From Bacteroidota bacterium (GTDB lineage: Bacteria; Bacteroidota; Bacteroidia; UKL13-3): a stretch of DNA of 64,000 nt. This document shows positions 5,627-55,610 of this stretch, piece after piece; within the stretch, counting starts at the first letter, position 1, and every line of letters starts with the position of its first letter. The notes beneath the pieces were generated by a model. That model had not been told where the DNA came from, made no database searches, and was given only the letters and a program-made list of their open reading frames with translations. The translations under genes and the position numbers were made by a program. The stretch is from contig JAIXSO010000053.1 of NCBI GenBank assembly GCA_027484685.1, positions 48,164 to 112,163 on the forward strand, written 5' to 3'.

Positions 5627-6652
5627 TTATTTAATGGTAAATAATAAACCAATTCTATGAATATTGCCAATGCGCGATTTGCTCACCAAACCATAATCAA
5701 TACCAAAATTACCAAAACTACGAGGCAATTTAATTCCAAAACCTAAACTTGGAAAATTATTAGCTTCATCTAAGCCAAACTCCCAACCGCTGCGGCCATA
5801 AAGAATTTTTTTCCAGCTATACTCCACTCCTAGTCCTACTGTTTCGTTATTATCGGTTGGATGGTTTAATTGCGCAGCAGTAGTTAGTACGTGGGTTTTA
5901 TTGCTAATTGGGTCAATGGCAAAACCTAACCTAAATACAGCAGGTGCCGAAACTGGTGTAAAATCGTTTTTTTGAGTTTCGCCATTTAATTTTAAAATAG
6001 TAACACTTCCTGTTGGGGCCACATTCACGCCAAAATTAGAAAACGTAACTCCAAAACGTGAATTTTTGATACCAATATTATAAGTTAAACCTAAATCGAA
6101 AAGTACATTATTTACTGATACGTTTGCTATAACCTCTTGCGCAAATTTGGCTTGTAAACCAAAACTAAAACTATTGGTTAAAATTTTTGCAAAACTAACA
6201 CCTATAGAAGTGCTTCCCATCAAGACATTTCTGCCTGTTCCGTTTGGTTCAAACTCTGTTGTTTCTTTGGTATCGCCAAAGCCTAAACTCATTACATTTA
6301 CGCCCACATAACTTAATTTGCCAGCTTTAAAAGCCACCGCACCGTAATTTACTTGGCTATTGCCAAACCAACGTGTGTGCGAAAACTGCGCAGTTACTTT
6401 ACCTGTATCAATTCCGGTAATTCCCGCAGGATTCCAATACAAAGCGGCAGCATCGTTGGTTAACCCAACCACAGCACCACCCATTGCAGCCGAACGTGCA
6501 TCAGGAACAATTTTTAAAAACTGCATACCACTTCCTCCTGTGCGGCTATTACCAAAGGTTGGCAATATTTGTGCTTGCGCAAAAGAGGCAGTAATTAATA
6601 AAATATATAATAATTTGAATTTAAACTTCATTGTTTTATAAAAGCCGTGCAA
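5627..6652 (-). CDS. outer-membrane beta-barrel protein, PorV/PorQ (UPF0164-like) family, T9SS-associated
   Basis: 341 aa with a signal peptide. N-terminal motif FLKIVPDARSAAMGGAVVGLTNDAAALYWNPAGIT is characteristic of the PorV/PorQ family. Alternating hydrophobic beta-strands and a C-terminal aromatic residue. Confidence 0.5.
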   Translation of the reverse strand: MHGFYKTMKFKFKLLYILLITASFAQAQILPTFGNSRTGGSGMQFLKIVPDARSAAMGGAVVGLTNDAAALYWNPAGITGIDTGKVTAQFSHTRWFGNSQVNYGAVAFKAGKLSYVGVNVMSLGFGDTKETTEFEPNGTGRNVLMGSTSIGVSFAKILTNSFSFGLQAKFAQEVIANVSVNNVLFDLGLTYNIGIKNSRFGVTFSNFGVNVAPTGSVTILKLNGETQKNDFTPVSAPAVFRLGFAIDPISNKTHVLTTAAQLNHPTDNNETVGLGVEYSWKKILYGRSGWEFGLDEANNFPSLGFGIKLPRSFGNFGIDYGLVSKSRIGNIHRIGLLFTIK

Positions 6653-7000
6653 AATAAAACATTATTTTATATTCTAAAGGTTAATTGTTTGTGAAGTTAA
6701 TTTAGTTGTTAGTTGTTAGTTGATGGTTGTCGGTTGATAGACAATAGACGATAGACCATGGTTTTGGGTTTAAATCAATAGTGGTAATTATTTTTAATTG
6801 CAAAATATTGGCAATAAAATGCTTGAAAAGAAGATAGCTAAATTTAAAATATTTCATTTCAATATTTACTGAGTTCAATTGCTATTGGACTTCTCTTTCA
6901 CTAATATTTTTTTGCAAACTGATAAAATAAAGCAAATAGTCATTCAGTAGGAATCCCCTTAATATGGCAACCAAGTTAGCTAATGGATAAGTAATTTCTT

Positions 7001-7357: not shown

Positions 7358-8005
7358 ATGAAAACCTTAAAGCAAACTTGCCAAATTATAAATACCAAAA
7401 AAATCAAAATTTTTGGGGTTTTGTTTATGGTGCTGTTTTTACAAAGCTGTATGAAAGAAGAATACGACAAGGTAGAACATAAAACCAATTATTATTACTT
7501 AACAGCAGCGCAGCTTAACCAAACACCTTATTTTACCAACCCAACCTTTGATACCATAAGTTTTGCTAGCGATAAAGGCGACACCTTAACCTTTGTAAAA
7601 ACCCAAACCGATGATACTACTTGGTATTGCGAAAATGGCTCTGGAAACCCTAATACAGGCTACGATAAAGATTGTTACCAAACCATACATAATACTTATG
7701 CTACTGTTAAAGGAAATGGGAGTTTTGATGTGAAGCATATAAAAGAAAACAACTATCTAAGTACATATTTACAAATAAAATTCTCTAACCTGATTTTTTA
7801 TTACGATGCTATAGCAATCGATGACGTTACATTTGGAAGATTTATAGGCGATTTTGTGAAAAACAATCAAACTTTTAGAAATACAATTTACACTTACAAT
7901 AATTATACTGATAGTTTAATAGCAATAAGTTATATCAATAAAGACTTTGGCTTGTTTTCAATAAATGATAAATCAACTAATACCCAATATTTAATACTTA
8001 AATAA
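7358..8005 (+). CDS. family-A variable lipoprotein, copy 1
   Basis: 215 aa. Lipobox LQSCM. The first ~120 aa and last ~10 aa are near-identical to the two downstream paralogs, at ~93% nt identity. The middle is divergent. Confidence 0.6.
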   Translation: MKTLKQTCQIINTKKIKIFGVLFMVLFLQSCMKEEYDKVEHKTNYYYLTAAQLNQTPYFTNPTFDTISFASDKGDTLTFVKTQTDDTTWYCENGSGNPNTGYDKDCYQTIHNTYATVKGNGSFDVKHIKENNYLSTYLQIKFSNLIFYYDAIAIDDVTFGRFIGDFVKNNQTFRNTIYTYNNYTDSLIAISYINKDFGLFSINDKSTNTQYLILK

Positions 8006-8029
8006 TTTTAGAAACCCAAAACAGCAAAC

Positions 8030-8677
8030 ATGAAAACCTTACAGCAAACTTGCCAAATTATAAACACCAAAAACTGCAAACTTTTTGGGGTTTTGTTTAT
8101 GGTGCTGTTTATACAAAGCTGTATGAAAGAAGAATACGACAAGTTAGAACATAAAACCAATTATTATTACTTAACAACAGCGCAACTTAACCAAACACCT
8201 TATTTTACCAACCCAACCTTTGATACCATAAGTTTTGCTAGCGATAAAGGCGACACCTTAACCTTTGTAAAAACCAAAACAGATACAAGTTGGTACTGCG
8301 AAAAAGGCTCAGGAAACCCAAACACCGGTTACGATAAAGATTGTTACCAAACCATACATAATACTTACATAACCACAAAAGGAAATGGGAGTTTTGATGT
8401 GAACTACAATTACTATACTTCTCAATATGGATTATTTAGAATTGAATTATTTTTTGGCAATGTACACTTTGTTATTTGTGAGTGTGTAATTAACGACAAA
8501 ACATATAAGAATTATGTTGGTGACTTTAAAATTGGTAACAATACTTTTTCTGATTCATTTTTTGAATTTCATAATTTAGTTGATGATTCAATAGCCAAAG
8601 GATATTTCAACAAGAATTATGGTCTATTTTACTTAAATGACAAATCAACCAATACTGAATATTTAATTCTTAAATAA
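8030..8677 (+). CDS. family-A variable lipoprotein, copy 2
   Basis: 215 aa. Same conserved N-terminal and C-terminal modules as copy 1, with an unrelated middle segment. Confidence 0.6.
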   Translation: MKTLQQTCQIINTKNCKLFGVLFMVLFIQSCMKEEYDKLEHKTNYYYLTTAQLNQTPYFTNPTFDTISFASDKGDTLTFVKTKTDTSWYCEKGSGNPNTGYDKDCYQTIHNTYITTKGNGSFDVNYNYYTSQYGLFRIELFFGNVHFVICECVINDKTYKNYVGDFKIGNNTFSDSFFEFHNLVDDSIAKGYFNKNYGLFYLNDKSTNTEYLILK

Positions 8678-8693
8678 TTTAAAAACAGCAAAC

Positions 8694-9353
8694 ATGAAAA
8701 CCTTACAGCAAACTTGCCAAATTATAAATACCAAAAACATCAAACTTTTTGGGGCATTGATTATGATACTGTTTATACAAAGCTGTATTAAAGAAGAATA
8801 CGATAAGGTAGAACATAAAACCAATTATTATTACTTAACGGCAGCGCAGCTTAACCAAACACCTTATTTTACCAACCCAACCTTTAATACCATAAGTTTT
8901 GCAAGCGATAAAGGCGACACCTTAACCTTTGTAAAAACCCAAACCGATACTACTTGGTATTGCGAAAATGGCTCAGGAAACCCAAATACTGGTTACGATA
9001 AAGATTGTTACCAAACCATACACAATACTTATGCTACTGTTAAAGGTAATGGGAGTTTTGAGGTGAAGCATGGTAATGTTAATTCCAATTTGTTCTTTTA
9101 TCGAACCACAGATATGATTAATTTTCAATTTAATGAATTAAATTTTTTTATTCGGGACTATAGAATTGGAACTAAAAATGGAACAATTTTTTATGATACA
9201 ATATTAGTAGGTAATAACACATTTAGCAATTCAATAAAAATATTTCATAATTTGAATGATTCTGTTTCAGGGGAAGCACTTATAAATAAAGATTTTGGCG
9301 TGTTTTCAATAAATGATAAGCTAAATGATACTGAATATTTTATTCTCAAATAA
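8694..9353 (+). CDS. family-A variable lipoprotein, copy 3
   Basis: 219 aa. Same architecture. Tandem with 16-24 nt spacers that repeat 'aacagcaaacATG'. Confidence 0.6.
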   Translation: MKTLQQTCQIINTKNIKLFGALIMILFIQSCIKEEYDKVEHKTNYYYLTAAQLNQTPYFTNPTFNTISFASDKGDTLTFVKTQTDTTWYCENGSGNPNTGYDKDCYQTIHNTYATVKGNGSFEVKHGNVNSNLFFYRTTDMINFQFNELNFFIRDYRIGTKNGTIFYDTILVGNNTFSNSIKIFHNLNDSVSGEALINKDFGVFSINDKLNDTEYFILK

Positions 9354-12359: not shown

Positions 12360-13595
12360 ATGAAAAAAATATTTACCATTATTGCTGCTTTAGCAGTATT
12401 TACTAATGTAAGCGCACAAAGGTACAAAGACAAAATTTTTACCGAAGTAGCCATGGATAGTGTAACTTATGGTTCTGCAAAAAACTATGCTGGCTCTACA
12501 CAAGACCTGAAAATGAATATTTTTCAACCAGTAGGCGATACTGCAACTAACAGACCTTTATTAATATTGGCTCATGGAGGTTCATTTGTTGGTGGAAATA
12601 GGTATTTACCAGATGTAACTTATTTATGTACCGAATTTGCAAAACGTGGCTATGTGTGTGTTTCAATTCAATACCGTTTAGGTGTTAATCCAATCGAAAT
12701 TGCTCTAGACCAAAGCCAAGCAGGACCTCAATTTGCTAACGCTTTGTGGCGTGGAACTTTAGATGGAAGAGCGGCTGTGAGGTATTTAAGAGCTAACGCA
12801 AATACTTATAAAGTTAGTTTAGGTCAAGTATATTTAGGTGGAGTTTCGGCAGGTGGTGTACTTGGATTACATGAAGCATTTTTAGATACAGAAGCCGAAA
12901 TTGGAACAGCAAACCCAAGAATGGACACTGCTGCTATTGGTGGTGGCATTGAAGGTTTAAGTGGCACACCAGGACAAAGCTGGAGAGTAAAAGGAGTTAT
13001 TAATTTATGTGGCGCTTTAGGCGATGTAAATTGGATGAGTAATAACAAAAATGTTTCTATATTTAGTGTGCATGGAACAAACGATGAAACGGTTCCATAT
13101 AAAACTAATTTCTTTTCTTATGCAGGTTTGCAAATTGGCCGTTTAAGTGGAAGTTTTGTGGTAGATTCAATGGCAAAAGTATTGGGTATGAAATCGGTAC
13201 TTTATACTTTTCAAGGTGCACCTCATGTGCCGTTTAGCCCAGGAGTAGGAACTACAGCAAGTAGTACTGCGTATATGGATACTACCGAAGGTTTGTTAAG
13301 AGAATTTTTATTTGATGATATTAAAACAGCAGGTGTAGGTGTAAATAATGTATTGGCTAATAGCGATGTAAAAGTTTATCCAAATCCAGCTAAAGAAAAT
13401 GTTTCGATTGAAACCAGTAAAGGTAACAACAATGTAATTACCATTTTAGACTTAAGTGGAAAAACCATTGAAACTGTAAATACTAGCAAAACAATTACTG
13501 TTTTAAATACTACTAACTTAACTTCAGGAATTTATTTTATACAAATAACCAATGAGTTTGGTAGCATTACTAAAAAATTAGTAATTGAAAACTAA
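12360..13595 (+). CDS. secreted alpha/beta-hydrolase esterase with T9SS C-terminal sorting domain
   Basis: 411 aa. Signal peptide, HGGSF oxyanion motif and GGVSAGG nucleophile elbow. The C-terminal ~80 aa (KVYPNPAKENVSIE...GIYFIQITNEFG) is a Por_Secre_tail. Confidence 0.8.
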   Translation: MKKIFTIIAALAVFTNVSAQRYKDKIFTEVAMDSVTYGSAKNYAGSTQDLKMNIFQPVGDTATNRPLLILAHGGSFVGGNRYLPDVTYLCTEFAKRGYVCVSIQYRLGVNPIEIALDQSQAGPQFANALWRGTLDGRAAVRYLRANANTYKVSLGQVYLGGVSAGGVLGLHEAFLDTEAEIGTANPRMDTAAIGGGIEGLSGTPGQSWRVKGVINLCGALGDVNWMSNNKNVSIFSVHGTNDETVPYKTNFFSYAGLQIGRLSGSFVVDSMAKVLGMKSVLYTFQGAPHVPFSPGVGTTASSTAYMDTTEGLLREFLFDDIKTAGVGVNNVLANSDVKVYPNPAKENVSIETSKGNNNVITILDLSGKTIETVNTSKTITVLNTTNLTSGIYFIQITNEFGSITKKLVIEN

Positions 13596-13620
13596 ATTTT
13601 AAAAAACTAAACCCTTTAAA

Positions 13621-13660
13621 AAGCCGCTAATCACTAAAATTAGCGGCTTTCTTTATTTTT
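13621..13660 (+). terminator. intrinsic terminator after the esterase gene
   Basis: aagccgctaat-cactaaa-attagcggctt followed by ctttattttt. Confidence 0.6.
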
Positions 13661-13726
13661 GGGTTTAAAATATTGGGGTGGCAAGGTTGTTGTAAATAGG
13701 GTTTTTAACTTAAACCACATACATTT

Positions 13727-14269
13727 ATGAAAACCAAACACTTTATTTTATTCCTAGTTATTGCAGCTTGTTTTTCGGCCTGTACTCCTAAAATTATTTT
13801 TAACGAAGCACTTAGAAATAACCTTGACCTCAAGCAAATTAAACCTGAAAAACTCCAATTTTATATTGATAGAAGTATTGATATGCGCAGAGAAATTGCC
13901 TCTAACAGCACTAAAATTTCAGGAGGAAAAATTGAATATTATAAAGGTAAAAATGTGCAGATTTTAAATATAAAAGAACTTACACCTGGTATTTGTTTGC
14001 GCAGCACCGATTCTACCTTAGATATTGCATTTGAAAGCAATAACGAATTGTATTTAACTTTTAAAAAAATAAAATCGCCTGATTTAGATGTAAAAATTTA
14101 CATGCTTGATGGTTTTAAAAATGAAGAAGGAAACTTTTTTGTAAATTATGGAGGTGTAAGTTACCAAATAGACGAAAAAGCAGCCGAAGCCAAAATTTTG
14201 ATAAAACGCAAAATTGCCAATAAAGAAAATGTGAACGTGAAGAAAATTAAAGGCAGAAAGGTGAGTTAG
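13727..14269 (+). CDS. hypothetical lipoprotein
   Basis: 180 aa. Signal peptide with lipobox FSACT. Confidence 0.45.
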   Translation: MKTKHFILFLVIAACFSACTPKIIFNEALRNNLDLKQIKPEKLQFYIDRSIDMRREIASNSTKISGGKIEYYKGKNVQILNIKELTPGICLRSTDSTLDIAFESNNELYLTFKKIKSPDLDVKIYMLDGFKNEEGNFFVNYGGVSYQIDEKAAEAKILIKRKIANKENVNVKKIKGRKVS

Positions 14270-14285
14270 GATTGTTGAATTGTTA

Positions 14286-14300
14286 TCACGCAAGGCGTGA
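14286..14300. repeat. 15-bp palindrome TCACGCAAGGCGTGA, copy 2
   Basis: Located 17 nt after the stop of the 13727-14269 CDS. Confidence 0.8.
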
Positions 14301-14319
14301 TTGAATTGTTATATTGATA

Positions 14320-14552
14320 AATTGTTAAATTGTCAATTGCTAATTGTCAATTATCCATTGCTAATTATCCATTGTCAACTATCCATTGTCAATTATCCAT
14401 TGTCAATTATCCATTGTCAATTATCCATTGTCAACTATCCATTGTCAATTATTCCATTGCTAATTATCCATTGTCAATTATCCATTGCTAATTATCCATT
14501 GTCAATTATCCATTGCTAATTATCCATTGCTAATTATCCATTGTCAATTGCC
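14320..14552. repeat. 14-bp tandem repeat array (CCATTGTCAATTAT / CCATTGCTAATTAT, ~16 units)
   Basis: Read directly from the sequence. There are two unit variants (TC/CT swap) plus occasional AACTAT. The array explains the artefactual ORF 14301-14519. It lies between convergent genes. Confidence 0.9.
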
Positions 14553-14565
14553 TATTAACAAAAAC

Positions 14566-14601
14566 GCCCGAAATCAAAAGTGATTTCGGGCGTTTTATTT
14601 T
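14566..14601. terminator. bidirectional intrinsic terminator (gcvT / lipoprotein gene)
   Basis: A 12-bp stem cgcccgaaatca/tgatttcgggcg with A-run on the 5' side and T-run on the 3' side. Confidence 0.75.
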
Positions 14602-14611
14602 AAATTATATA

Positions 14612-15688
14612 CTACAAAAACGGAATTTTTACCACTTTAGCTTTAATCATTTTTTCGCGAATTTCGATGAAAATTTCTGAATCAACTTTGCTATGCGAAG
14701 CTGCTACATAACCCATACCAATAGCTTTGTTTAAACTTGGCGATTGAGTTCCTGAAGTAACTTCACCAATGGTATTTCCTTCTGCATCTTTAATCATGTA
14801 ATGTTGACGAGGAATACCACGGTCAATTAATTCGAAACCAACTAATTTTTTAGTAGCACCATTTTCTTTAATGGCTTTGTGATGTTCGCTCATTATAAAT
14901 GGTTTGGTAAATTTGGTAATCCAACCTAAACCTGCTTCAATTGGGCTAGTTTCATCGTTGATATCGTTACCATACAAACAAAAACCTTTTTCTAAACGTA
15001 AAGTATCGCGCGCACCTAAACCAACTGGAATAATATCAAACTCTTTTCCTGCTTCAAAAATGGCATCCCACATTTTTTTAGCATCTTTATTCCAAACATA
15101 AATTTCAAATCCACCTGCACCGGTATAACCTGTGTTTGAAATAATTACATCATCGCAACCAGCCATGGTACCACCGCAAAAAGTGTAATATTCCATAGCG
15201 CTTAAGTTTACATCAGTTAATTTTTGTAAAGCCTTAATAGCATTAGGACCTTGAACTGCAAATAAACTCATGTCATCACTCATGTTTTTCATTTCTACAC
15301 CAAAAGTATTGTGTTGGCTAATCCAATTCCAATCTTTTTCAATGTTTGATGCATTTACTACTAAGTAATACTCATCGGCACTCCAACGGTATACCAATAA
15401 ATCATCTACAATTCCACCTTTATCGTTTGGTAAGCAGCTGTATTGAACTTTACCATCGGTTAATTTTGAAGCATCGTTGCTGGTAACTAATTGAATTAAT
15501 TCAAGCGCTTTTTCGCCTTTTAGCATAAACTCGCCCATGTGGCTAACATCAAACACACCTACCGAATTGCGAACAGCTAAATGTTCTTGAATTAAATTGG
15601 TGTATAATACAGGCATGTTATAACCTGCAAATTCAATCATTTTTGCACCCAAGCCAGCGTGCAAATCATTTAAAGCAACGTATTTCAT
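14612..15688 (-). CDS. gcvT: glycine cleavage system aminomethyltransferase T
   Basis: 358 aa. [29 protein letters not shown] is the canonical GcvT N-terminus. Confidence 0.9.
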
Positions 15689-15810
15689 TTGTTAAAATAT
15701 TATTTTAGTTTTTATAAAGGCGAAAGTAATATAATACTTTAAAAAATTGCCATGTTGTAAATTTGATAAAAATTTGTTGATTAGTTAATTGAGTTGTTTA
15801 AGTTAATAGT

Positions 15811-16884
15811 TTAAAATTTTCGTGCGTAAATATTTGTGCTAGTTAATATGTAAAGTGTATTATCAATGACCCAATTACACTTTATTTCTTCATTTTCTGC
15901 AAAAGGTGTTGTAATACTTTCAACCTTTCCACTTTCAATATTTAATAAAGTTAGCTCGTTAAACAAATATTTATTATCATTACTATAGCTTAAAATCAGC
16001 ATGTACTTTTCATTAAAGTATGGAAGAACATTACCTAATAACTTATATTTATATACAACTGCAAAATCTGAAAAATTAGTTGTTTTGTATATTTCACGTG
16101 TGATGAAGTTATGAAAGTAAGCATAATTGTTAAAAGTCCCTATAAAAGTATAATCTTTTGAAATACTTTGATTGGTTTGAACCAGCATTGACTTGGTATT
16201 TATTGTGGCAAATTCATTTTCAAAATATTTCCAAAACACAATATTATCTCTTAATCTAAAAGTTGTATTGAAACCAGTTTTAGAAAAAATTGAGATGGTA
16301 GTATCTATTTTTTTGTTATTATGTCTATAATTAAATAAATAATTATAGCCTAATGCATTATTATAATTGTAGTAGGCGAAATAATCATATCCATAGCCAA
16401 TAAAGTTATATAAATTAGTTTCATTTGTATCTTTTATAAAGTAACTACGCGCAAAAAAATTGGTAATTATTTCTGTTCCATATAAATTATTTTCAATAAT
16501 TACTTGACTGCTTTTACCTGGTCCAGCTTGTGGGTTAATAATATAATAAAAAGTGTTTTTGAAATTAGGAAAGCCAGCAACTGATTGAAACTTAATAGCA
16601 GAATTTCCCGAGTTTAATATAAAATTGGGTGAGATTGTAAGATTGAAATTAGAGTCAATAAAAAAAACTTTATTATAACTTAACAACGCCATGCTTTTGT
16701 TTGGTTGGTAAGATACATCTGTTATATTGTTACCAACTTTATATGGAACTTTGTTCATCTTTGTCCATTTATTATAATAAACAATTGAATCAATTTCTTG
16801 GTTGTTGCTAACTGTGTTATTGTTTTCTTTTTTACAGGCAAAAAAGGAAAGTATTAACAAGGCAAAAAATATTCTTTTAATCAT
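15811..16884 (-). CDS. family-B lipoprotein, copy 1
   Basis: 357 aa. Lipobox SFFACKKENNNTVSN. The C-terminus ends ..NIYARKF. Paralogous to the two upstream genes. Confidence 0.55.
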   Translation of the reverse strand: MIKRIFFALLILSFFACKKENNNTVSNNQEIDSIVYYNKWTKMNKVPYKVGNNITDVSYQPNKSMALLSYNKVFFIDSNFNLTISPNFILNSGNSAIKFQSVAGFPNFKNTFYYIINPQAGPGKSSQVIIENNLYGTEIITNFFARSYFIKDTNETNLYNFIGYGYDYFAYYNYNNALGYNYLFNYRHNNKKIDTTISIFSKTGFNTTFRLRDNIVFWKYFENEFATINTKSMLVQTNQSISKDYTFIGTFNNYAYFHNFITREIYKTTNFSDFAVVYKYKLLGNVLPYFNEKYMLILSYSNDNKYLFNELTLLNIESGKVESITTPFAENEEIKCNWVIDNTLYILTSTNIYARKF

Positions 16885-16890
16885 GTCCTT

Positions 16891-17970
16891 TTAAAATTTT
16901 CGTGCGTAAATATTATCTTCAGTTAAAACATACAAAACATTGTCAATAATCCAATTACATCTTACCTTTTCGTAACGTTCTAATGGCATTGATAAAATTT
17001 GAGAGGATTTATTTTCTAGATTCAATAGTATAAATTCTGTTTCTTGGTCATTATAAGTGCTTAGGTATTTCACAATTAATAAATATTTTTCGTTAAAATA
17101 AGGTACTGGATTATTAATTAAATCATTCTTATAAACCATTTCAAAATCCGTAAAATTATTTGACTTATATATGCCTTGATTAAAAAATTTATTATTATAA
17201 AAGTAAGCACTATTATTAAAAGTACCTATAAAACTAAAGTTTTTTGGAACGCTTTGATTTTCTTGAACAGACATTGTTCGAATATTTATTGTAGTAAAAA
17301 CATTATTGTAATATTTCCAGAAAACCACTTTGTCTCCAAGTCTAAATGTAGTATTATAGCCTTCACCAGTAAAAGAAATTGTAGTATCTATTCTTTTTTG
17401 GTTGTTAAAATAGCGTAATTGATAGTTATCTAAATTAGGTAACGCTTTGTAAATGTAATATGCATAATAGTCTTCTCCATAACCCATATAATTGTAGGAA
17501 TTATTCTGGTTCGTGTCTTTTACGAAAAAATTTCTTGAATAAATTTGTGTATTAACTTCAGAACCATAAATAGTATTTTCAATAATTAGCTGATTGGACT
17601 TACCAGAAGACGAAATGGCATCAGTTAAATAAAAAAATCTATCTTTTATATTTGGAAAATCATTATAAGTTTGGAATTTCATGTAAAAAATACCAGAATT
17701 ACTAAAAAACCTTGGTGATAGATTTACTTTATAATTGGAATCTATAAAATACACCCTAGAATTAGTTAGCAAAGCAATGGCTTTATTTGGAAGATAAGAT
17801 ATGTCTGTAACGTAATCTGTCAGTCTTAATGGAACTTTGTTCATCTTTGTCCATTTATTATAATAAACAATTGAATCAATTTCTTGAGCGTTGCTAACTG
17901 TGTTATTGTTCTCTTTTTTACAAGCAAAAAAGGAAAGCATTAACAAGGAAAAAAATATTCTTTTATTCAT
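16891..17970 (-). CDS. family-B lipoprotein, copy 2
   Basis: 359 aa. The same N-terminal 45 aa are nearly identical to copy 1. Conserved motifs include VFWKY, IGTFNN, PYFNEKY and CNW. Confidence 0.55.
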   Translation of the reverse strand: MNKRIFFSLLMLSFFACKKENNNTVSNAQEIDSIVYYNKWTKMNKVPLRLTDYVTDISYLPNKAIALLTNSRVYFIDSNYKVNLSPRFFSNSGIFYMKFQTYNDFPNIKDRFFYLTDAISSSGKSNQLIIENTIYGSEVNTQIYSRNFFVKDTNQNNSYNYMGYGEDYYAYYIYKALPNLDNYQLRYFNNQKRIDTTISFTGEGYNTTFRLGDKVVFWKYYNNVFTTINIRTMSVQENQSVPKNFSFIGTFNNSAYFYNNKFFNQGIYKSNNFTDFEMVYKNDLINNPVPYFNEKYLLIVKYLSTYNDQETEFILLNLENKSSQILSMPLERYEKVRCNWIIDNVLYVLTEDNIYARKF

Positions 17971-17985
17971 AACTATATTTTAAGT

Positions 17986-19065
17986 TTAATAAAACTTTCT
18001 ACCATAAACATTATTACTCGTTAGCAAATATAAATTATCACCAATTACCCAATAGCATTGGGCTTCTCCATCCCAAGAATCCCAAGTAAAAGTAACCACT
18101 TTTAAGGTTTCAATATTAAGTAAACAAATGTTATGTGTTCTAATTGTATTTTGTTCAAACTGTTGAGAATACATGATGTACTTTCCTTTGTGATAAGCCC
18201 AAACTTTATCCATAATTAAATCTGTATATATTTTTTTGAAGTCTTTTAAATTGGAGCTTGAGTAAATTGATCCATCTGCTTTTTTCTCAAAATAAGCGGT
18301 GTTATTATAAATACCAATCAATTTGAAATCGGCTGAAAAAGTTTGGTTTGAATCAAGTTGGTTTGTAGCAAAATCAAAATACCTAAAATTATTTCCTGTT
18401 TCATTTAAAAAGCAAAGCTTGTTATTGAATTCAAATGCTTTTGTATAAAGCTGATTGATATTTAATTTTATTGATTTGGTAAGTATATTATTGCTAAAAT
18501 AATTAATAGAATACCCCATTGCTTTTGTTTTATCAATACCAAACCAAAACACCTTATAATCATCATTTTCCAACATGATATCGTAAATAATATTTGATGA
18601 GGTGTCATCAATAAAATAATTTTTATTGAAATACTCAAAACGTAAACTTTTTTCTGATGTTAAGTTATAAGAAACAAAAAATTGACTAAAAGATTTATCA
18701 TTGTTTCTAAATGTATTTAAATACAAAAAATAAGCATATAAAGAATCTGTAGTTTTAGACTCTGCAAAGCGTGATTGAATATTTGTTCCTGATTGTAAAC
18801 TTCTATATTGAAAAGGTTTACTTAATACTTTATTTTCATCAATAAAGTAAACATCATTATCACCTAATATGCATAAAATACTGTTATTATTAATTAATCG
18901 AATATCTTTAATGTACAAATAATCAATGAACTGATTGTCCATAAATTTAGTCCATTTATAATTCGTCAAAGTGGTATCCAGTTGACTTGTATTAACTGTA
19001 GTATTTTCTTCTTTTTTACAGGCAAAAAATGATACAAGCAGAAATAGCACAATAATTTTATTCAT
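17986..19065 (-). CDS. family-B lipoprotein, copy 3 (more divergent)
   Basis: 359 aa. Lipobox FFACKKEEN. Shares motifs YKWTKF, YFID, CYWVI and LYLLTSNNVYGRKF. Confidence 0.5.
   Translation of the reverse strand: MNKIIVLFLLVSFFACKKEENTTVNTSQLDTTLTNYKWTKFMDNQFIDYLYIKDIRLINNNSILCILGDNDVYFIDENKVLSKPFQYRSLQSGTNIQSRFAESKTTDSLYAYFLYLNTFRNNDKSFSQFFVSYNLTSEKSLRFEYFNKNYFIDDTSSNIIYDIMLENDDYKVFWFGIDKTKAMGYSINYFSNNILTKSIKLNINQLYTKAFEFNNKLCFLNETGNNFRYFDFATNQLDSNQTFSADFKLIGIYNNTAYFEKKADGSIYSSSNLKDFKKIYTDLIMDKVWAYHKGKYIMYSQQFEQNTIRTHNICLLNIETLKVVTFTWDSWDGEAQCYWVIGDNLYLLTSNNVYGRKFY

Positions 19066-55382: not shown

Positions 55383-55610
<228 letters not shown>

Follow-up and report, generated by a model that had tools for sequence, protein, structure and literature searches.

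A tandem array of compound 14-bp heptamer units between convergent lipoprotein and gcvT genes of a Bacteroidota genome, probably a recently expanded minisatellite

The 64,000-nt stretch of contig JAIXSO010000053.1 from a Bacteroidota bacterium (hereafter the window) contains, in the spacer between a putative lipoprotein gene and the convergent gcvT gene, a tandem array of 15 units of 14 bp, each unit being a dimer of two related heptamers, ATTGTCA and ATTATCC, with a 7-nt sub-period. This array is a lineage-specific expansion at a locus that is hypervariable among near-conspecific genomes and that closes with a conserved terminator. It is probably a recently expanded, hypermutable minisatellite or variable-number tandem repeat (VNTR) of heptanucleotide origin, which would have grown by slippage or unequal recombination within a 3' untranslated region (3'UTR) and would have no sequence-specific role, being presumably transcribed and neutral.

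Anatomy of the array and of the tract around it

Tandem Repeats Finder (TRF) delimits the array at 14343-14549, with a period of 14, 14.7 copies, 88% matches and a score of 321, the next-best score within the window being 80. A search with CCATTGTCAATTAT, allowing at most 2 mismatches, places 15 in-register units at 14341-14551; the original prediction was thus right in describing a real tandem array at 14320-14552, and one unit too high in counting 16. For this query 1.66 chance matches are expected per whole window, and 17 matches were reached in none of 100 shuffles. Elsewhere in the window the 14-bp unit appears just as two singletons with 2 mismatches each, at chance level, and an autocorrelation scan of the 64 kb at periods 7 and 14 detected no further strongly periodic stretch besides the array.

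The units are arranged head to tail with 88-100% identity, contiguously and with no spacers between them, so that the array, as uninterrupted copies of a short unit, is a simple sequence repeat of the VNTR type. Read from end to end, it comprises eight units of the TC type (both boundary units included), five of the CT type (CCATTGCTAATTAT) and two with AACTAT, the variants already noticed in the original prediction, and one of the units carries an extra T, which makes it 15 bp long (14439-14453). Designating CCATTGTCAATTAT as A, CCATTGCTAATTAT as B and CCATTGTCAACTAT as A', the order of the units is a*, B, A', A, A, A, A', A(+T), B, A, B, A, B, B, A-term. An alternation of the two main variants had been described as non-random, which a runs test on nBnnnnnnBnBnBBn does not support (9 runs, permutation P=0.32). 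Within its right half, the array shows the succession B-A-B-A-B-B-A, which is compatible with copying of two-unit blocks. The + strand of the array is composed of 28% A, 22% C, 7.6% G and 42% T, and as a single strand it is weakly structured, folding no better than shuffled sequences (z=-1.3 as DNA, z=-1.8 as RNA).

The array is not isolated within the spacer. A degenerate tract of 7/8-nt repeats in ATTG phase starts 1 nt past the TAG stop codon of the lipoprotein gene, and not some 50 nt after it as had been proposed for the start of the repeats, and continues into the array, so that repeats occupy the whole spacer from stop codon to terminator. TRF reports a period of 8 at 14304-14333, within this degenerate zone and its edge, and the zone is found in all relatives whose lipoprotein is at least 93% identical. 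Inside it lies a small G+C-rich hairpin bordered by a 12-bp direct repeat, TTGAATTGTTAT. This hairpin is lineage-specific, being found in none of L123, L124, L145 and L147, and in L140 a different one, CCCGA-TAAA-TCGGG (2074-2092 of that locus), takes its place.

Other classes of repeat were considered and rejected. An array of clustered regularly interspaced short palindromic repeats (CRISPR) is ruled out, as the repeats adjoin directly and include no unique spacers. A repetitive extragenic palindrome or bacterial interspersed mosaic element (REP/BIME), or an inverted-repeat element resembling a miniature inverted-repeat transposable element (MITE), is ruled out by a heptamer run in reverse orientation being found nowhere in the window. 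A phase-variation contingency repeat is ruled out by the location of the array, 3' of a stop codon, upstream of a terminator and between convergent genes. Open reading frames (ORFs) of 72 and 53 aa do run through the array on the + strand, and owe their existence solely to a consensus unit that is free of stop codons in this direction; on these grounds, and with the sequence missing in relatives, a coding reading was rejected.

Variation at orthologous loci and proposed origin of the array

Spacers between the lipoprotein gene and gcvT were gathered through lipoprotein homologues and cluster members, which provided ten orthologous loci, and were measured from stop codon to stop codon (Table 1). 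The spacer of the window is the longest, and the array-length comparison in relatives that had been recommended indeed reveals lengths that vary among near-conspecific genomes. This length polymorphism among close relatives at one locus makes the locus a VNTR, as originally supposed, and the 14-mer array is confined to the lineage of the window.

Table 1. Spacers between the lipoprotein gene and gcvT at orthologous loci, by identity of the lipoprotein to that of the window
Locus	Lipoprotein identity	Spacer (nt)	Content
Window	100%	342	15-unit array
L140	99%	213	Without the 14-mer unit; extra ~100 nt past the terminator included
L145	96%	177	Heptamer mosaic with a single ATTGTCA-ATTATCC unit
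L147-L150	94%	204	ATTGCYN heptamer mosaic
L123	93%	249	ATTGCYN heptamer mosaic and extra ~100 nt past the terminator
L124	88% over a partial 105-aa product	173	ATTGCYN heptamer mosaic
L132/L133	65%	115	Just ATTGCCT ATTGCCT ahead of the terminator
L125-L131, L137	69-75%	104-105	Unique sequence and terminator

In the five lineages L123, L124, L140, L145 and L147, the gcvT DNA is 94.6-96.0% identical to that of the window, and each of them displays its own mosaic of ATTG-phased 7/8-mers, a homogeneous 14-mer array being found in none. Tracts of this cluster share a common layout, with a 5' octamer zone (ATTGTTNN) and a 3' heptamer zone ending in ATTGCCT ATTAA and the terminator. In a multiple alignment of the orthologous spacers the flanks align and the array stands as a block specific to the window. 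The single unit of L145 has neighbours identical to those of the window, with ATTGTCA ATTGCTA ATTGTCA ATTATCC on its left and ATTGCCT ATTAAC followed by the terminator on its right, so that the L145 allele resembles a pre-expansion state. A metagenome scan anchored on the terminator hairpin retrieved one orthologous contig, without the array, and one unrelated match.

An extra segment of ~100 nt between the terminator and the gcvT stop codon (AACTATGATGGTG...TTTCGTTTCGACTCCGCTCAACGACC...) was also observed in L123 (~1052-1150) and L140 (~2150-2250), and in none of the window, L124, L145 and L147.

Differences among the spacers of orthologous loci indicate that the array is a recent lineage-specific expansion within an older, fast-changing tract. 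ATTG-phased 7/8-nt repeats would have been present in the stop-to-terminator spacer since the common ancestor of the species-level cluster, and in the lineage of the window one neighbouring heptamer pair (ATTGTCA + ATTATCC) would have turned into the 14-bp unit, which replication slippage or unequal recombination may then have amplified to 15 copies. Point variants (TC>CT, T>C and +T) would have been copied along during the amplification, some of them as two-unit blocks. The tract is probably 3'UTR because the sole terminator after the lipoprotein gene is located beyond it; the array would then most likely be transcribed as ~290 nt of the lipoprotein 3'UTR, transcripts of gcvT being expected to end before reaching it. 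For the array to persist, a spacer tolerant of insertions would suffice, with no need of a sequence-specific function. When the 23 heptamer types of the cluster were joined in a minimum spanning tree, changes in the seven heptamer columns amounted to 2, 2, 2, 4, 3, 6 and 4, and no significant constraint on any heptamer position was found (chi-square P=0.66).

Several observations weigh against this explanation. (i) Changes in the ATT core number 6 of 23 versus 9.9 expected, a deficit that is not significant (one-sided P=0.076). (ii) Each of the six lineages in the cluster retains some ATTG-phased repeat tract, and weak selection for a spacer of repeat type could be acting besides mutational persistence. 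(iii) Ongoing change in copy number would be deduced from differences between lineages, not from samples of the same strain. (iv) The same 24-mer, CCATTGTCAATTATCCATTGTCAA, appears in genomes of several phyla, for which pure local slippage is insufficient alone. (v) The array does not form strong hairpins, as indicated by the z-scores given above, and hairpin-assisted slippage is unsupported.

Regarding its consequences, the locus is a good marker that separates very close lineages of an uncultured Bacteroidota species, and the array is a break point for short-read assemblies and probably amounts to 200 nt of difference in the length of a single 3'UTR. The alleles form an exceptionally clean series, from no repeat to two heptamers, a heptamer mosaic, a single 14-mer and the 15-unit array, which illustrates how a heptamer tract within a 3' spacer of a bacterium gives rise to a compound minisatellite.

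The heptamers in other genomes, known repeats and alternative readings

When one genome was scanned for each species, CCATTGNNAAYTATCCATTGNNAA matched at least 120 stretches (L003-L122), and in most of the matches listed NN was TC, that is, the exact 24-mer of the window. Its carriers are at least 120 species genomes, mostly Bacteroidota, with cyanobacteria, Clostridia, Planctomycetota and others also represented; among the first 80 loci of those listed, 55 are from Bacteroidota, 7 from cyanobacteria, 5 from Clostridia and 13 from other groups. Within the 64-kb window, no other array of the unit was found, a search for further arrays in the genome having been recommended. Arrays of this family are mosaics of ATTGTCA, ATTATCC, ATTGTCC, ATTATCA and ATTGTTA, with ATTRTYM as consensus, and contain 2-21 heptamers each, the 30 heptamers of the window array being the longest run among the matches listed.

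The family shows a clear polarity. On its forward strand the consensus unit has no stop codon, and on its reverse strand (GGATAATTGACAAT) it closes all three reading frames. Of 125 arrays, 61 start in reverse orientation where a gene naturally ends or within its last few codons, and 11 do so in forward orientation, these counts being based on crude gene calls (ORFs of at least 100 aa) and on distances that degenerate array edges may blur. ORFs running into reverse-orientation arrays frequently end in ...LTMDN-stop; ten of them were compared with Pfam, and each corresponded to a real gene (MIP, ferritin, SDR, TruA, ABC transporter and others), the domains extending near the C-terminus in most cases. 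An inverted partner array is located within 300 nt on the 5' side in 22 of the 125 arrays and on the 3' side in one. The succession of stop codon, array and terminator seen in the window is not general, a terminator-like site following 9 of 61 arrays versus 10.7% of random 150-nt windows. The heptamer repeat is not phage-borne: among viral contigs the exact 24-mer gave 1 match and two composition-matched control repeats gave 0, numbers too small to speak of enrichment.

The ATTRTYM heptamers might be conceived as a specific, polar and recurrent 3'-end element that a conserved factor recognises or produces, and not as one more result of slippage, a proposal that we regard as unlikely. In its favour are the recurrence of the 24-mer in at least 120 species genomes, the start of the stop-rich strand at natural stop codons of unrelated housekeeping genes (61 arrays versus 11 for the other strand) and the polarity of the inverted pairs (22 versus 1). 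If a conserved factor or a dedicated mechanism did act at gene ends, the window array would be a hyper-expanded copy of the element in an unusual orientation. Recurrence across phyla with fixed polarity to stop codons extends the reports on TAACTGA repeats considered below.

Some members of the family exhibit further organization. The polar inverted pairs (L020, L027, L036, L041, L072, L083, L092, L099, L101, L121 and others) could form long intergenic hairpins, those of L027 and L101 being located between two convergent gene ends. L023 (Caldora), L065 (Okeania), L097 and L100 have a conserved segment of ~40 nt (TTTTTCTCCTTAAAAGGAGAGGCTTTAAACC...ATTAATTA) beside a forward array and a reverse heptamer array ~90-145 nt upstream, which looks like a MITE-like dispersed element with heptamer arrays as arms. 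Runs of ATTGTCA/ATTATCC together with CATCAACC heptamers occur in L029, L048, L062 and L078, all four from OY782677.1 (a Bacteroidales chromosome from a metagenome-assembled genome), and in L093, with identical flanks in L029 and L093; the composite regions of OY782677.1 give the impression of an intergenic composite element present there in several copies.

With regard to known systems, the array belongs to the heptanucleotide repeats and is unusual just in its length, its compound 14-bp unit and its mostly stop-free sense strand. The heptanucleotide is the commonest unit of long simple sequence repeats in most genomes, an abundance possibly related to the manner of polymerase slippage (Mrazek et al. 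2007, in the summary of PMC4679880). With this prokaryotic class, of 5-11-nt units, the array shares its head-to-tail units, 7-nt sub-period and intergenic site, and with it and with VNTRs in general a fast turnover among close relatives, slippage being presumed. It differs from the class in that it combines two diverged heptamers in each 14-bp unit and in that it lies in a convergent 3' spacer, not in a promoter or coding sequence, with no obvious phase-variation read-out.

Heptamer repeats of TAACTGA are reported for Beggiatoaceae, Cyanobacteria and five Bacteroidetes, where one strand encodes LITDN-stop and can overlap gene ends by just a few codons while the other is open, the repeats are missing from close relatives that share the gene neighbourhood, and draft assemblies are interrupted within them (MacGregor 2015, PMC4679880). 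They resemble the window array in that both consist of heptamers in the same phyla, have relatives without repeats and cause contig breaks, and in both one strand closes the three frames (..LTMDN-stop for the window unit, LITDN-stop for TAACTGA) and the other is open; moreover, the reverse strand of the window unit holds TAATTGA, with 1 mismatch to TAACTGA. Nonetheless, the heptamers of the window are ATTGTCA and ATTATCC and not TAACTGA, its array is located after a stop codon, has the mostly stop-free strand as its sense strand and is followed by no start codon, and its 15 compound units are at the long end of the range. In the TAACTGA type, the stop-rich strand is sense to the flanking gene, typically shortly before a start codon. 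A literature search for 21-mers of the array unit gave no match. Heterocystous cyanobacteria contain short tandemly repeated repetitive (STRR) heptamers, reportedly described by Mazel and colleagues in 1990, with TTGGTCA as STRR2; these resemble the window array as tandem intergenic heptanucleotides, TTGGTCA being similar to TTGTCAA, and differ from it in host phylum and unit.

Among other explanations for the array, a role at the RNA level is given some weight and is still considered improbable. The array would then be a 3'UTR platform for an RNA-binding protein (Rho at a rut-like site, or a protein of S1 or Csp type), and its length would tune the fate of the mRNA. Its place between the stop codon and the sole terminator agrees with such a role, as do a + strand richer in C than in G, in the manner of rut sites, with regular YC dinucleotides and no significant fold, the S1, Csp or CsrA binding suggested for TAACTGA heptamer repeats (MacGregor 2015, PMC4679880), and the presence of some repeat tract here in every lineage of the cluster. 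However, a strong intrinsic terminator lies directly 3' and makes a Rho site redundant, L140 is entirely devoid of the unit in spite of a lipoprotein that is 99% identical, and in the wider family the G-rich, stop-rich strand is usually the sense one (61 versus 11 arrays), which leaves the window in the minority orientation. An Rfam scan of 13000-16000 at E<=1 yielded no family at gathering score, its sub-threshold matches being driven by the terminator hairpin. An array of iterated DNA sites, either a cluster of iterons or DnaA boxes or an array of transcription-factor half-sites serving to titrate or position a DNA-binding protein, is much less likely, despite the regular 14-bp spacing of its direct repeats, the 14 evenly spaced copies of TTATCCA, which agree with the 9-base DnaA box TTATCCACA at its first 7 positions, and the 4-1-4 palindrome formed by ATTGTCAAT. 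The repeat reads TTATCCATT, without the last two positions of the box, and not a single TTATCCACA is found in the 64 kb; unlike datA-type clusters, the locus has no replication genes or origin signals nearby, cumulative GC skew showing no turning point in the window. Furthermore, the motif is missing from the tracts of L140, L147, L123 and L124 and is present as a single copy in L145, the palindrome is broken by the CT variant in 5 of 15 units, and the absence of significantly constrained heptamer positions extends to this motif. The iteron or DnaA-box cluster is rejected on these grounds, and the iterated binding site of the original prediction finds no support in a unit that is not conserved at the orthologous site.

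The minus strand of the array might instead be read as a series of promoters, with TTGACA-N17-GATAAT in each pair of units driving antisense transcription into the lipoprotein gene. Between 13600 and 15000 there are 20 sigma-70-like sites, versus 7.0 +/- 2.8 in shuffles, and 15 of them lie on the minus strand in the array or at its edge (14321-14561), eight having 11 of 12 matches. This reading is nevertheless considered highly improbable, since the match follows automatically from the sequence of the unit, no minus-strand gene lies downstream, and the host belongs to Bacteroidota, as shown by a neighbouring T9SS (type IX secretion system) gene and by its Bacteroidota/Bacteroidia relatives. 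The primary sigma factor of Bacteroidota recognises TTTG and TAnnTTTG, not TTGACA and TATAAT, and no TAnnTTTG is found on either strand of 14201-14650. The minus-strand sigma-70 matches are probably meaningless in this host. In Clostridia, cyanobacteria or proteobacteria with the same heptamers, matches of sigma-70 type could matter. It is just as hard to credit that the array is an assembly artefact, namely a collapsed, expanded or chimeric sequence, a danger also raised at the outset. Its copy number rests on one assembly, and in Logan SRR16126889, an independent short-read assembly, the two contigs with lipoprotein and gcvT genes identical to those of the window break off within the array, one from either side. 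Their breaks at k=31 are due to an exact repeat of 49 bp, the longest inside the array, which reads of at least 100 nt would resolve. Both junctions match base for base in these contigs, the irregular order of the variants and the 15-bp unit are unlike the output of a collapsed or looped assembly graph, and related alleles present the same tract architecture.

Flanking genes, terminator and other repeats of the window

The features of the locus are collected in Table 2. The convergent arrangement of the two genes, correctly recognised in the original prediction, is found in the window and in all relatives keeping the pair. The upstream product, whose N-terminus (MKTKHFILFLVIAACFSAC) is signal-peptide-like and includes a lipobox-like Cys, is a putative lipoprotein as judged from that N-terminal sequence. 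About 20 homologues were found, all in uncultured Bacteroidota/Bacteroidia, and neither they nor the protein itself show any Pfam domain. The G+C content of the host is 31%, and a neighbouring gene encodes the T9SS domain Por_Secre_tail.

Table 2. Features of the spacer and its flanking genes, in window coordinates
Feature	Position	Strand	Basis or content
Putative lipoprotein gene, 180 aa	13727..14269	+	ORF list; stop TAG 14267-14269
Degenerate octamer/heptamer zone (ATTGTTGA, ATTGTTAT, ATTGATAA, ATTGTTAA ...)	14271..14328	+	ATTG spacing 7-8 nt
Small hairpin ATCACGC-AAG-GCGTGAT	14285..14301	+	Sequence reading; also in minimum-free-energy folds
Lead-in heptamers ATTGTCA ATTGCTA	14329..14340	+	Heptamer parse of alleles; also in L145
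Array	14341..14551	+	15 units of 14 bp (one 15 bp), ATTGTCA/ATTGCTA plus ATTATCC/ACTATCC
Right boundary heptamers ATTGCCT ATTAACA	14547..14560	+	Relatives keep ATTGCCT ATTAA(A/T/C)
Bidirectional intrinsic terminator	14561..14596	.	Terminator scan; folds of both strands
gcvT, glycine cleavage system aminomethyltransferase	14612..15688	-	ORF; Pfam GCV_T and GCV_T_C on identical product

The hairpin that closes the spacer is a bidirectional intrinsic terminator common to the lipoprotein gene and gcvT, which confirms the strong shared terminator with a 12-bp stem that had been predicted. It consists of 16 pairs, 7 of them G-C, with a G+C-rich core of 12 bp (CGCCCGAAATCA/TGATTTCGGGCG) and the loop AAAG, is preceded by an A-run on its 5' side and followed by a T-run on its 3' side, and folds identically on both strands, the stop codon of gcvT being 15 nt away. 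Its position is kept in every relative with the gene pair, the stem of the 75%-identity group having its own sequence, and the consensus fold shows double-sided changes in 4 of 14 pairs.

Further repeats and duplications were observed in the window. A second short heptamer repeat at 6702-6756 (TTAGTTG three times, then ATGGTTG, TCGGTTG, ATAGACA, ATAGACG and ATAGACC) is intergenic and separates two divergent genes, one of 341 aa (5627-6652, minus strand) and one of 215 aa (7358-8005, plus strand); its units are unlike those of the array and it has no inverted partner. A perfect 21-bp tandem duplication, CTAGTCCAGCTCCGATTGCGG, with 1.9 copies and 100% matches, is located at 55541-55580 and has the second-highest TRF score. 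Two groups of tandem paralogues with lipoprotein-like N-termini are also present, namely three of 215-219 aa on the plus strand at 7358-9353 and three of 357-359 aa on the minus strand at 15811-19065, the latter adjoining gcvT. In L124, a single gene of ~359 aa follows gcvT, versus the three of the window.

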